Assembly (NCBI RefSeq): GCF_988242995.1
Contig: NZ_OZ547043.1
DNA: 64,000 nt
Direction: 5' to 3' (one strand)
Shown: piece by piece, positions 58,759 to 62,417 of the stretch
Numbering within the stretch: the first letter of the stretch is position 1
Layout of the letters: the number at the start of each line of letters is the position of its first letter
Made by a program: the position numbers and the translations under genes
Notes under the pieces: model-generated
Databases searched by the model: none
What the model was told of the DNA's origin: nothing
The model's input: the letters and a program-made list of their open reading frames with translations, nothing else

Positions 58759-61191
58759 ATGAGTGTGATTGCGCAGGCAGGGGCGAAAGGTCGTCAACTG
58801 CATAAATTTGGTGGCAGTAGTCTGGCTGATGTGAAGTGTTATTTGCGTGTCGCGGGCATTATGGCGGAGTACTCTCAGCCTGACGATATGATGGTGGTTT
58901 CCGCCGCCGGTAGCACCACTAACCAGTTGATTAACTGGTTGAAACTAAGCCAGACCGATCGTCTCTCTGCGCATCAGGTTCAACAAACGCTGCGTCGCTA
59001 TCAGTGCGATCTGATTAGCGGTCTGCTACCCGCTGAAGAAGCCGATAGCCTCATTAGCGCTTTTGTCAGCGATCTGGAACGCCTGGCGGCGCTGCTCGAC
59101 AGTGGTATTAACGATGCGGTGTATGCGGAAGTGGTGGGTCACGGTGAAGTGTGGTCGGCGCGCCTGATGTCTGCGGTGCTTAATCAACAAGGGCTGCCAG
59201 CGGCCTGGCTTGATGCCCGCGAGTTTTTACGCGCTGAACGCGCTGCGCAACCGCAGGTTGATGAAGGGCTTTCTTACCCGTTGCTGCAACAGCTACTGGT
59301 ACAACATCCGGGTAAACGTCTGGTGGTGACCGGGTTTATCAGCCGTAACAACGCTGGTGAAACGGTGCTGCTGGGGCGTAACGGTTCCGACTATTCCGCG
59401 ACACAAATCGGTGCGCTGGCGGGTATTTCTCGTGTAACCATCTGGAGTGACGTCGCCGGGGTATACAGTGCCGACCCGCGTAAAGTGAAAGATGCCTGCC
59501 TGCTGCCGTTGCTGCGTCTGGATGAAGCCAGCGAACTGGCGCGTCTGGCGGCTCCCGTTCTTCACGCCCGTACTTTACAGCCGGTTTCTGGCAGCGAAAT
59601 CGACCTGCAGCTGCGCTGTAGCTACACGCCGGATCAAGGTTCCACGCGCATTGAACGCGTGCTGGCCTCCGGTACTGGTGCGCGTATTGTCACCAGCCAC
59701 GATGATGTCTGTTTGATTGAGTTCCAGGTGCCCGCCAGTCAGGATTTCAAACTGGCGCATAAAGAGATCGACCAAATCCTGAAACGTGCTCAGGTGCGTC
59801 CACTGGCGGTTGGCGTGCATAACGATCGCCAGTTGCTGCAATTTTGCTACACCTCAGAAGTGGCCGACAGTGCGCTGAAAATCCTCGACGAAGCGGGATT
59901 ACCTGGCGAACTGCGCCTGCGTCAGGGGCTGGCGCTGGTGGCGATGGTCGGTGCAGGCGTCACCCGTAACCCGCTGCATTGCCACCGCTTCTGGCAGCAA
60001 CTGAAAGGCCAACCGGTCGAGTTTACCTGGCAGTCCGATGACGGCATCAGCCTGGTGGCAGTACTGCGCACCGGACCAACCGAAAGCCTGATTCAGGGGC
60101 TGCATCAGTCCGTCTTCCGCGCGGAAAAACGCATCGGCCTGGTATTGTTCGGCAAGGGCAATATCGGTTCCCGCTGGCTGGAACTGTTCGCCCGTGAGCA
60201 GAGCACGCTCTCGGCGCGTACCGGCTTTGAATTTGTGCTGGCAGGTGTGGTGGACAGCCGCCGCAGCCTGTTGAGCTATGACGGGCTGGACGCCAGCCGC
60301 GCGTTAGCCTTCTTCAACGATGAAGCGGTCGAGCAGGATGAAGAGTCGCTGTTCCTGTGGATGCGCGCCCATCCGTATGATGATTTAGTGGTGTTGGACG
60401 TTACCGCTAGCCAGCAGCTTGCTGACCAGTATCTCGATTTTGCCAGCCACGGTTTCCACGTCATCAGCGCCAACAAACTGGCGGGAGCCAGCGACAGCAA
60501 TAAATATCGCCAGATCCACGACGCCTTCGAAAAAACCGGGCGTCACTGGCTGTACAACGCCACCGTCGGTGCGGGCTTGCCGATCAACCATACCGTGCGC
60601 GATCTGATCGACAGCGGCGATACTATTTTGTCGATCAGTGGGATCTTCTCCGGCACGCTCTCCTGGCTGTTCCTGCAATTCGACGGTAGCGTGCCGTTTA
60701 CCGAGCTGGTGGATCAGGCGTGGCAGCAGGGCTTAACCGAGCCTGATCCGCGTGATGACCTTTCCGGCAAAGACGTGATGCGCAAGCTGGTGATTCTGGC
60801 GCGTGAAGCGGGTTACGACATCGAACCAGATCAGGTGCGCGTGGAATCGCTGGTGCCTGCCCATTGCGAAGGCGGTAGCATCGACCATTTCTTTGAAAAC
60901 GGCGATGAACTTAACGAGCAGATGGTGCAACGGCTGGAAGCGGCCCGCGAAATGGGGCTGGTGCTGCGCTACGTGGCGCGTTTCGATGCCAATGGCAAAG
61001 CGCGTGTGGGCGTGGAAGCGGTGCGTGAAGACCATCCGCTGGCATCACTGCTGCCGTGCGATAACGTCTTTGCCATCGAAAGCCGCTGGTATCGCGATAA
61101 CCCTCTGGTGATCCGCGGACCAGGCGCAGGGCGCGATGTCACCGCCGGGGCGATTCAGTCGGATATCAACCGGCTGGCGCAGTTGTTGTAA
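58759..61191 (+). CDS. metL: bifunctional aspartokinase II / homoserine dehydrogenase II
   Basis: 810-aa ORF starting 2 bp after metB. Confidence 0.95.
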   Translation: MSVIAQAGAKGRQLHKFGGSSLADVKCYLRVAGIMAEYSQPDDMMVVSAAGSTTNQLINWLKLSQTDRLSAHQVQQTLRRYQCDLISGLLPAEEADSLISAFVSDLERLAALLDSGINDAVYAEVVGHGEVWSARLMSAVLNQQGLPAAWLDAREFLRAERAAQPQVDEGLSYPLLQQLLVQHPGKRLVVTGFISRNNAGETVLLGRNGSDYSATQIGALAGISRVTIWSDVAGVYSADPRKVKDACLLPLLRLDEASELARLAAPVLHARTLQPVSGSEIDLQLRCSYTPDQGSTRIERVLASGTGARIVTSHDDVCLIEFQVPASQDFKLAHKEIDQILKRAQVRPLAVGVHNDRQLLQFCYTSEVADSALKILDEAGLPGELRLRQGLALVAMVGAGVTRNPLHCHRFWQQLKGQPVEFTWQSDDGISLVAVLRTGPTESLIQGLHQSVFRAEKRIGLVLFGKGNIGSRWLELFAREQSTLSARTGFEFVLAGVVDSRRSLLSYDGLDASRALAFFNDEAVEQDEESLFLWMRAHPYDDLVVLDVTASQQLADQYLDFASHGFHVISANKLAGASDSNKYRQIHDAFEKTGRHWLYNATVGAGLPINHTVRDLIDSGDTILSISGIFSGTLSWLFLQFDGSVPFTELVDQAWQQGLTEPDPRDDLSGKDVMRKLVILAREAGYDIEPDQVRVESLVPAHCEGGSIDHFFENGDELNEQMVQRLEAAREMGLVLRYVARFDANGKARVGVEAVREDHPLASLLPCDNVFAIESRWYRDNPLVIRGPGAGRDVTAGAIQSDINRLAQLL

Positions 61192-62285
61192 TCCTGAGCC
61201 AGAGAAAGCAGTATTTGCGTAACGCGCCCTGCGGAAAGCGGGGGGCTGTGAGTAAATACTGCTTGTTTATGTAGCCAGTCGATAAAATGTCTGCTGGTTG
61301 CGAAAGAGAGTATTTCAGCTTTGCTGTTATTTCCGCCTGTTAATGCACATACCATTTTACGATTTTTGCCCTGAACCCAGAGTTGCCACTGATTTTTCCA
61401 CCAGCCGTGATAAGTTTTTCCCTGAAAACGCCAGGGCGTATTATCGGTATAGTCAGCTATTTCCTCTTCAATAAACCAAATCTCACCTTGCTGTTGGCGA
61501 AACAGTTCTGCCCAGGCCGTAATAATCGCACCTCTTAAAAAACACTCGTGTGAAATTACATGTGTTTTTACTGTAGGGAATAAAATATTCAGTACTCTAA
61601 AATGCCCGTGCGCTGTGATAACCGGACGCAGAATAACACCTTTAGCATTGCGCTTGAGCGCTGCGCTGCCATACTGAATTTCATCAAACTGACTGCGGTG
61701 TAGAAATTGTGCTTCGCGCATATCAACGCGTTGTACAATATTATTGTCGTGTAACTCTGGTTCTGCATTTCCTCTGTATCGATAATGCAGACTTTCTCCA
61801 GCCTGATGCTGCGTGTAATTAGTAGAAAGATGAAGAATATTACCGCGAAGAGCATCAAAACTGATTAAAACATACAGTTTCTGCCCGCCGCTGGCTCCCT
61901 GAAATGGCACCAGAAGAGCAACCGTTTCGATTATTTCAGGAGGCGTTATTTCTTTCTGATATTGTTTAGGTGTCCATACTTTTTTGCAGTTACGACATTG
62001 AATGCGTTGCGACCCCTGTGGATTGTGGCCATAACAAATCGTCTTTGTGCCATAACATACCGGGCAGAAATGACCTTTCTCAGTTGCAAAAGTAGATAAG
62101 TGAACTGACAACCAGTCACGAAATTGCTGTTCGTCAAACAACGGCGGGTAACTTCCACATGCCCGACAGTGCAGTGCCGGATAACCCAGTCGATAGTCTG
62201 GCCAGCTGTAATCTGTCGATGTTGGTTGCCCTAAATTACGACAACCAAACGACTTGCAGGCATTAATCGTAAACAGAGTCGACAT
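61155..62285 (-). CDS. hypothetical protein (376 aa) with N-terminal C4 zinc-ribbon motifs; on an AT-rich islet absent from K-12
   Basis: only long ORF in this stretch; AT-rich; Cys pairs CxxC...CxxC (CRACG, CPVCYG...CRNCKKVW) resemble the IS1 InsA-type zinc finger; 3' end overlaps the metL 3' end by 37 bp. Confidence 0.6.
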   Translation of the reverse strand: MSTLFTINACKSFGCRNLGQPTSTDYSWPDYRLGYPALHCRACGSYPPLFDEQQFRDWLSVHLSTFATEKGHFCPVCYGTKTICYGHNPQGSQRIQCRNCKKVWTPKQYQKEITPPEIIETVALLVPFQGASGGQKLYVLISFDALRGNILHLSTNYTQHQAGESLHYRYRGNAEPELHDNNIVQRVDMREAQFLHRSQFDEIQYGSAALKRNAKGVILRPVITAHGHFRVLNILFPTVKTHVISHECFLRGAIITAWAELFRQQQGEIWFIEEEIADYTDNTPWRFQGKTYHGWWKNQWQLWVQGKNRKMVCALTGGNNSKAEILSFATSRHFIDWLHKQAVFTHSPPLSAGRVTQILLSLAQDYNNCASRLISD

Positions 62286-62417
62286 ATATCACCAACGATT
62301 TCACAAGGTCGTTGATTTTGTCCGGCAACTATCCCCTGCGGATGTGATTACTCTCACATAAATAACTCTTTCAGAACGTAATGTAGCAATCCTTTAAATC
62401 ACTGAAAGGGACTATTT
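62286..62417. promoter_or_regulatory. AT-rich divergent promoter region between the two islet genes
   Basis: 132-bp AT-rich spacer between divergently transcribed ORFs. Confidence 0.4.

Follow-up and report, generated by a model that had tools for sequence, protein, structure and literature searches.

A transposase-derived zinc-ribbon protein encoded beside a 5'-nucleotidase gene, a possible local regulator of nucleotide scavenging

Directly after metL, on the minus strand of a 64,000-nucleotide stretch of contig NZ_OZ547043.1 (RefSeq assembly GCF_988242995.1; the whole stretch is hereafter the window), lies a gene for a zinc-ribbon protein of 376 amino acids that is divergent from a gene for a 5'-nucleotidase-type enzyme. 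We are confident that this gene is derived from a transposase and that it is now immobile and under selection, and it is very probably tied in function to the scavenging of nucleotides and nucleosides. As to what the protein does, we give an even chance to the hypothesis that it is an exapted IS1-like transposase that acts directly, at its own locus, as a regulator of the genes for scavenging nucleotides and nucleosides. The original prediction had described a minus-strand zinc-ribbon open reading frame (ORF) after metL, with the motifs CRAC, CPVC, and CRNC, and had offered as readings of it a two-gene defence, toxin, or regulatory module or a domesticated transposase. The ORF and all three motifs are present exactly as described; that prediction ended the feature at 62417 and so included, beyond the ORF, the 132 bp that separate it from the ATG of the partner gene. 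We found no literature on the protein family.

By profile comparison, the N-terminal module descends from the IS1 InsA type, as had been suspected from its paired cysteines. A family profile that covers the zinc ribbon as well as a helix-turn-helix (HTH) aligns with residues 4-87 of IS1 InsA (hhalign probability 96.4%, E 1e-9), and the Pfam model Zn_ribbon_InsA (PF03811) is significant in seven of the 51 family members, with an i-E of 0.11 in the 376-residue protein. Scans of the latter against Pfam, NCBIfam, and PHROGs recover the second cysteine cluster alone, below threshold: NCBIfam IS1_IS1595_Zn (NF050000) reaches 21.3 bits against a cut-off of 28, and this model and transpos_IS1, both under their cut-offs, cover residues 74-122. 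In addition to CRAC (residues 40-43), CPVC (74-77), and CRNC (97-100), there is a C10/C15 pair that was absent from the original prediction, and the ribbon to which it belongs forms short beta hairpins in the AlphaFold model. The eight ribbon cysteines are conserved in 40 to 51 of the 51 family members, and the relatives without the cysteines of ribbon 1 are those in which the N-terminal part is missing. Most relatives possess a segment of ~50 residues after ribbon 2 that is missing from the 376-residue protein and from all homologues of at least 56% identity; in the model of a 34%-identical relative (P0138), three helices at residues 114-169 stand where an HTH is expected. Single-sequence and profile searches of PDB sequences returned eukaryotic C2H2 fingers that match by their cysteine pairs only, and these matches were judged to be compositional.

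The remainder of the protein is predicted to adopt an RNase H-like fold of the DDE transposase/integrase type, which favors the domesticated transposase among the readings that had been put forward. An AlphaFold model built from an alignment of 51 sequences has a predicted local distance difference test score (pLDDT) of 94.4 and a predicted template modelling score (pTM) of 0.93, and it shows one compact globule in which the ribbons pack against the core. The core consists of strands b1 (118-127), b2 (136-144), b3 (150-155), b4 (217-219), and b5 (241-245) and helices a1 (183-196), a2 (221-235), and a3 (248-257); it carries a beta-meander insertion at 268-314 and is followed by C-terminal helices at 320-374. 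In the model, the folds closest to the C-terminal domain are those of transposases and integrases, not exonucleases. Matches in the AlphaFold database (AFDB) belong to the same uncharacterized family and come from Enterobacterales, Vibrionaceae, and a few other marine gammaproteobacteria. The second model, that of the 34%-identical relative, has the same architecture plus the three-helix insert, and a Foldseek search of the PDB with it placed the ISCth4 and Mu transposases on top, none of the matches reaching E <= 0.001. At the level of sequence models, PF03400 (DDE_Tnp_IS1) matched neither the 376-residue protein nor any of the 51 relatives, NF033558 matched over model positions 1-48 only, and no DDE model was matched in the Pfam and NCBIfam scans.

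The position on b1 at which the first catalytic aspartate (D1) would be expected, at about residue 119, is Leu, Ile, or Val across the family, with no acid in any subgroup, and the position expected for the second (D2), after b4, is a conserved R220-P221. The only conserved acidic columns are 144 (75%), 201 (86%), and 247 (100%); R197 and H228 are invariant, and H246 is nearly so. From the model we infer the loss of the classical DDE site and its replacement by a different conserved pocket. The b2-b3 segment ('SFDALRGNILHL') was also aligned by eye with IS1 ('AYDSLRKTVVAH'), as was 'HVIS'; this was noted as a lead only and is not used as evidence.

The gene does not look mobile. No terminal inverted repeats flank the island, the short chance pairs that were seen being inside the ORF only, and there is no target-site duplication relative to K-12, in which 197 bp are replaced. 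When copies at unrelated chromosomal sites are compared, homology comprises the nucleotidase gene, the spacer, and the zinc-ribbon gene and stops at the stop codon of the latter. In E. coli the gene occupies a median of one and a maximum of two places per genome, and genomes with two copies contain paralogous loci, each with its own nucleotidase partner. The protein is encoded by a single ORF of 376 codons without a -1 frameshift. No full-length known insertion sequence (IS) with inverted repeats was recovered, and the ORF is intact across relatives. The protein is therefore not an ordinary IS product and should not carry the label of an IS1 transposase, despite the automatic annotation of many of its relatives. 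Two copies of the zinc-ribbon gene were seen on plasmids.

Selection on the gene is evident from its coding sequence. Pairwise ratios of nonsynonymous to synonymous substitution (dN/dS) are 0.11-0.18 for the zinc-ribbon gene and 0.02-0.06 for its nucleotidase partner, dS between orthologues is saturated, and the frame is intact in 19 of the 20 orthologues examined. Among 5426 complete E. coli genomes, 1744 have the gene, virtually without exception in a single copy, and 39 of 40 sampled records annotate it as an intact coding sequence. Homologues that are full-length and 56-99% identical are found in Escherichia, Citrobacter, Klebsiella, Enterobacter, Kluyvera, Pluralibacter, Pseudocitrobacter, and others, where they are named only 'cytoplasmic protein' or 'hypothetical protein'; the relatives in AFDB bear the automatic names 'Cytoplasmic protein', 'InsA N-terminal domain-containing protein', or 'IS1 family transposase'. 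The family is small, with ~115 clusters (50% identity, E <= 0.001) in an exhaustive search of 1.84 billion representatives; it includes relatives of 400-530 residues and 20-40% identity and has so far been found in Gammaproteobacteria only.

The position between metL and metF is held in at least nine genera: Escherichia, Pseudocitrobacter, Kosakonia, Phytobacter, Citrobacter, Klebsiella, Superficieibacter, Kluyvera, and Salmonella (S. arizonae). Because the same pair occupies the same site in all of these, the locus is likely to be old and to have been lost by K-12-type strains, rather than to be a recent insertion. The original prediction of an AT-rich islet was right as to composition, in that GC content falls from 0.58-0.61 within metL to 0.43-0.45 from ~61200 on, through the ORF and the start of the partner gene; the idea of recent acquisition does not fit with synteny across many genera of Enterobacteriaceae, and the islet comprises two genes and ends before metF. 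In K-12, the short metL-metF spacer of the original prediction is indeed there and measures 348 bp, and both island genes are missing. Relative to K-12, ~3.0 kb with two genes stands in place of 197 bp of this spacer, and homology resumes ~150 bp upstream of metF; in a closely related complete genome the island consists of these two genes only, followed by metF.

Two deep allele classes exist in E. coli, one of 95-99% nucleotide identity in 1167 genomes and one of ~80% in 538 (for example, APEC BEN2908 and PMV-1). The protein of the window allele is 92% identical to that of Pseudocitrobacter vendiensis and ~60% identical to those of Citrobacter and Klebsiella, the figure for MetL being ~94% in all three. 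This pattern suggests either old allelic lineages or a two-gene cassette that may have been exchanged between genera by recombination at the same site. Homologues that appear truncated are found in Salmonella enterica subsp. arizonae (L050, 6001-6729) and at a further locus (L047, 6001-6744); in one, residues 126-368 alone match, and in the other the ORF is down to 259 residues. The nucleotidase gene is full-length in both, and these loci are examples of decay of the zinc-ribbon gene alone. At Enterobacter-type loci (L004/L005 and similar) the ATG is replaced (ATATTG...) and the gene call of the collection begins at ATA, so that translation probably starts from TTG, one codon downstream.

The link to scavenging comes from the neighbors of the gene. 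The partner product is, on its domain matches, a periplasmic 5'-nucleotidase-type enzyme of the UshA/CpdB superfamily and not the nuclease-like enzyme that had been suggested: it matches the UshA, CpdB, NadN, and SoxB models of NCBIfam, all below their equivalog cut-offs, so that the assignment is at the level of the superfamily, and its homologues carry the Pfam domains Metallophos and 5_nucleotid_C. Its N-terminus looks like a signal peptide on inspection, and Sec-type export is predicted. We scanned one genome per species, using a narrower alignment as query, and obtained 38 loci, mainly from Enterobacteriaceae; in 36 of these the homologue and a 5'-nucleotidase gene form a divergent pair, ~132-145 bp apart, which bears out the view of the pair as a conserved two-gene module. 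Of the other two, one lies on a contig that ends ~140 bp upstream of the gene, and the other is a partial match at which no reference gene was detected. A second, paralogous type of locus, in which the gene and two to four nucleotidase paralogues, up to four of them in tandem, plus Tsx lie behind the same conserved control region, is found at unrelated chromosomal sites in Enterobacter, some E. coli, and some Citrobacter; individual contexts of this type contain two 5'-nucleotidases and Tsx, or a 5'-nucleotidase, Tsx, and a 5'-nucleotidase in that order. Both types of locus occur together in E. coli SCPM-O-B-8794, Escherichia sp. MOD1-EC7003, and Citrobacter sp. wls619.

More distant homologues have different neighbors from the same pathway. 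One homologue of 31% identity adjoins genes for a phosphopentomutase-like protein (DeoB), a purine-nucleoside-phosphorylase-like protein (DeoD), and a nucleoside:H+ symporter (NupG-like), and another, also of 31%, adjoins Tsx and a 5'-nucleotidase. A homologue of 34% identity is found with a NupC-type transporter and a nucleoside phosphorylase, and that of Salmonella Give (30%) with a porin, an AphA-like class-B acid phosphatase, and a class-II cyclic-nucleotide phosphodiesterase (PDEase_II). In Enterovibrio and Vibrio, the gene immediately upstream, on the same strand, encodes a NadN-like 5'-nucleotidase. Eight contexts beyond the 38-locus scan all involve genes of this pathway; altogether, at ~11 distinct sites across Enterobacterales and Vibrionaceae, homologues down to 25% identity have genes for nucleotide or nucleoside scavenging beside them, and there was no context without such genes. 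Since the genes differ and the pathway is the same, a pathway-specific role fits these data, and hitch-hiking of a passenger cannot account for them.

The 132-bp spacer between the two genes is highly conserved among ~30 loci in more than 10 genera and at different chromosomal sites. It contains a perfect core of the CRP type, TGTGA-N6-TCACA, whose half-sites are conserved across loci; the window holds two such cores where 0.06 would be expected, the other being at 13465-13480. Judging by a putative -10 element of the nucleotidase gene (TAATGT, 62379-62384), the center of the core would lie ~40 bp upstream of the transcription start, a class-II-like geometry, and we predict that CRP binds there. 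Relative to the start codon, CRP-like sites are located at -73, -74, and -78 in the window and at two distant homologue loci. The spacer also contains two inverted repeats that are confined to this intergenic region. The repeat CTTTCAG-N27-CTGAAAG, an exact match to which occurs once per locus in 32 loci, flanks the putative -10 and the 5' leader of the nucleotidase gene, its right arm overlapping the Shine-Dalgarno sequence, and is a candidate operator. The repeat CAACGA-N10-TCGTTG, matched exactly once in each of 24 loci, ends 8-9 nt upstream of the start codon of the zinc-ribbon gene and is a candidate for an autoregulatory operator or for an element of translation control. Variant repeat arms show no compensatory changes and Rfam has no match in the leader, so the repeats look like protein-binding sites and not RNA structures. 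No extra copies of the repeats were found upstream of Tsx or of the paralogous nucleotidase genes, and therefore no regulon could be drawn. An operator common to distant homologues was sought as well, and only recurring GTTGG(T)GA and CRP-like sites at similar distances emerged, which are too weak to claim. The GTTGG(T)GA-like motif is found 3-25 nt upstream of start codons (window 62286-62300; loci L009, L010, L013, and L056) in otherwise unrelated intergenic DNA. It resembles the IS1 terminus GGTGATG and may have survived from a transposon end, or it may be no more than the region for ribosome binding.

IS1 InsA acts as a repressor of its own promoter, and its zinc finger and HTH mediate the binding to DNA (PMC12428005). 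We propose that the zinc-ribbon protein would bind the divergent control region much as InsA binds the ends of IS1 in repressing its own promoter, with the two inverted repeats (Table 1) as its candidate operators. Through such binding the protein would control a promoter of the 5'-nucleotidase gene or operon that would depend on CRP, and probably its own expression as well. The remodelled active-site pocket (invariant R197 and H228, with H246, E247, and D201) could then sense a nucleoside- or nucleotide-like ligand. In this scenario the InsA-type zinc ribbon and the RNase H-like core would have been kept, and the transposon ends, mobility, and D1/D2 acids lost. That the entire gammaproteobacterial family represents IS1-type DDE proteins exapted as regulators of scavenging, the dead site serving as effector sensor and the end-binding module as operator-binding domain, is a wider proposal, which we offer tentatively and consider slightly the less probable outcome.

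Several points weigh against direct regulation, the chief one being that the HTH has been lost in the clade of E. coli and other Enterobacteriaceae, b1 following directly on the ribbon in the model of the 376-residue protein, and in InsA the HTH is needed together with the zinc finger for DNA binding (PMC12428005). With the HTH gone, DNA binding would be left to the two zinc ribbons, or else regulation would be indirect. No sequence-level homology of the core to IS1 InsB emerged: a profile of the C-terminal part gave an hhalign probability of 0.2% against it, which is not significant and was obtained with an IS1 alignment of low diversity, the protein search with IS1 InsAB' having returned close IS1 copies only, too uniform for a sensitive profile. 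The DDE positions were placed by following the topology b1-b2-b3-a1-b4-a2-b5 and not by residue-level superposition, and the acidic columns 144, 201, and 247, together with the invariant His and Arg, leave room for a catalytic role of the remodelled site. The case for regulation is, moreover, a computational one.

These points bear on two other explanations, each of which we regard as unlikely. The protein could be a cytoplasmic enzyme or nucleic-acid-processing factor of nucleotide salvage that uses the remodelled RNase H-like site, and not a transcription factor. The invariance of H228 and R197 and the acidity of position 247 in all sequences and of 201 in most would suit an active site, as would the inferred location of these residues near the C-terminal ends of b4 and b5, where the active sites of RNase H folds sit. 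The loss of the HTH in the E. coli clade is likewise in its favor, and the co-directional arrangement in Vibrionaceae, with the gene 27-36 nt directly behind that of the nucleotidase, suits an operon-encoded enzyme equally well. On the other hand, the nearest folds are transposases and integrases rather than exonucleases, the InsA-like DNA-binding module is kept family-wide, and in most lineages the genes form a divergent pair with a conserved common control region; the partners are also chemically mixed (periplasmic phosphatases, channels, transporters, and phosphorylases), which would be better explained by one regulator in common than by one enzymatic step. Nor is it probable that the protein regulates indirectly, through an RNA that it binds or through protein-protein contact with CRP, CytR, or RNA polymerase, its ribbons being interaction modules in the E. 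coli clade. The HTH in Enterobacteriaceae is lost, yet purifying selection persists; the control region has a conserved CRP core, and in the model, with the pTM given above, ribbons and core form a single compact body. However, there is no supporting sign of a partner protein, the two region-specific inverted repeats are most simply read as protein-binding DNA sites, Rfam gave no structured RNA, and the repeat arms are without compensatory changes.

That the pairing reflects co-mobility, the protein being a still-functional or recently decayed IS1-family transposase with the nucleotidase gene as its passenger, seems very unlikely to us. A 2.8-kb block of nucleotidase gene, spacer, and zinc-ribbon gene does occur at several unrelated chromosomal sites, two copies are on plasmids, the DNA is AT-rich, and the label 'IS1 family transposase' is widespread among automatically annotated relatives. 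But terminal repeats, a target duplication, and conservation past the stop codon are all absent, the gene is present in one or at most two copies per genome, each with a nucleotidase partner, and no subgroup has acids at the expected D1 and D2. Synteny across at least nine genera with saturated dS also speaks against this account, and the distant homologues, with different genes of the same pathway beside them, are not explained by hitch-hiking. A two-gene anti-phage defence or toxin module, which had also been suggested, is the least probable reading and is not supported. It could draw on the generic features of an accessory, AT-rich, variably present two-gene locus only, whereas PADLOC gave no family for either protein at E up to 1, PHROG matches are confined to the zinc ribbon, the partner is a Sec-type periplasmic 5'-nucleotidase, and the neighborhoods are metabolic, with housekeeping or nucleoside genes in place of defence islands. 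We favor direct local regulation by an exapted transposase as a working hypothesis.

The features of the locus are collected in Table 1. The final 37 nt of the zinc-ribbon ORF overlap the 3' end of metL, the two genes being convergent. An imperfect hairpin with 27-nt arms (AAGCAGTATTT...AAATACTGCTT) at 61206-61264 begins 15 nt past the metL stop codon, inside the 3' coding end of the zinc-ribbon gene, and could act as terminator for metL, either in common with the convergent gene or imposed upon it. In K-12, the 197 bp in the place of the two genes (770-966 of the compared stretch) contain a palindrome like those of repetitive extragenic palindromic (REP) sequences and bacterial interspersed mosaic elements (BIME), and a REP-like element is likewise present in the occupied allele, where it lies downstream of the nucleotidase gene. 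In strain NY1601, yiiX is annotated as frameshifted (4436-5043 of that locus), which is unrelated to the zinc-ribbon gene.

Table 1. Positions, in the window, of the zinc-ribbon gene, its domains, the adjoining genes, and the elements of the control region
Feature	Position	Strand	Basis
Zinc-ribbon gene, 376 aa, ATG start	61155..62285	-	ORF call; homologues; dN/dS; AlphaFold model
Zinc ribbon 1, residues 10-43 (C10, C15, C40, C43)	62157..62258	-	Cys kept in 47-48 of 51 aligned relatives
Zinc ribbon 2, InsA type, residues 74-100 (C74, C77, C97, C100)	61986..62066	-	NCBIfam, Pfam, hhalign
Predicted RNase H-like (DDE transposase/integrase) fold, residues ~116-376	61158..61940	-	Model
Shared divergent control region, 132 bp	62286..62417	.	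Strong conservation, ~30 loci
Perfect CRP-type core TGTGA-N6-TCACA	62343..62358	.	Half-sites conserved across loci
Inverted repeat CTTTCAG-N27-CTGAAAG (candidate operator)	62368..62408	.	Exact match once per locus in 32 loci
Inverted repeat CAACGA-N10-TCGTTG (candidate operator)	62293..62314	.	Exact match in 24 loci, once each
Divergent partner gene, 517-aa metallophosphatase/5'-nucleotidase	62418..63971	+	NCBIfam superfamily matches, Pfam domains on homologues
metL, left boundary of the two-gene locus	58759..61191	+	K-12 homology stops exactly at the metL stop codon

For eukaryotes there is ample documentation of DDE transposases domesticated as host regulators, and for bacteria there is hardly any. 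To our knowledge, the known transposase-derived regulators of bacteria come from other transposase classes. If the proposed role is correct, the zinc-ribbon protein would be among the very few documented bacterial DDE transposases that have become a metabolic transcription factor. It would also offer a tractable bacterial case, being a single-copy gene of E. coli, Klebsiella, Enterobacter, Citrobacter, Salmonella, and Vibrio with the expression of the adjacent 5'-nucleotidase, Tsx, or NupC as a read-out, and two widespread annotations, 'cytoplasmic protein' and 'IS1 family transposase', would be corrected. Furthermore, it would reveal an unrecognized layer of control on the scavenging of nucleotides and extracellular DNA, a process that is relevant to fitness in the gut and in the environment (PMC4714964).

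Among known systems, IS1 InsA/InsAB' resembles the zinc-ribbon protein in its C4 ribbon, followed in the relatives by an HTH, and in the DDE-type, RNase H-like fold of the C-terminal part, and the action of InsA as a DNA-binding repressor at its own promoter (PMC12428005) is the mode that we propose here. Compared with InsAB', the zinc-ribbon protein has an extra N-terminal ribbon, a beta-meander in the core, and a single ORF, and its clade has deleted the HTH. It also differs from IS1 in the lack of a DDE_Tnp_IS1 match, of D1/D2 acids, of inverted repeats, and of a target duplication, and in being single-copy and syntenic. The TldR proteins are nuclease-dead relatives of TnpB, that is, transposon-derived bacterial repressors that originate from RuvC-type TnpB and are RNA-guided. 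They share with the zinc-ribbon family a mobile-element fold that has lost catalysis and has been fixed as a host gene beside its presumed targets; the zinc-ribbon family is of DDE transposase origin, and no guide RNA is evident, Rfam giving no match. Nucleoside uptake and catabolism in enterobacteria are controlled by CytR, DeoR, and CRP, CytR being a member of the LacI family. The periplasmic route of nucleotide scavenging includes UshA, CpdB, and NupC (PMC4714964). The CytR/DeoR/CRP system and the zinc-ribbon protein have a target pathway in common (5'-nucleotidases, Tsx, and NupC/NupG-type and Deo-type proteins), as well as a CRP-type site in the promoter region. Unlike CytR and DeoR, to which it is unrelated, the zinc-ribbon protein is locus-specific and accessory, and no tandem CRP/CytR architecture was seen at its control region. 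Finally, eukaryotic transcription factors have arisen from DDE transposases, as in the derivatives of pogo/Tc1-mariner elements (PMC7386202). These resemble the zinc-ribbon protein in combining the DNA-binding module of a transposase with a degenerate RNase H-like core in an immobile gene under purifying selection, whereas the zinc-ribbon protein is bacterial, is of IS1-type origin, and is associated with a metabolic operon in place of chromatin or centromere functions.

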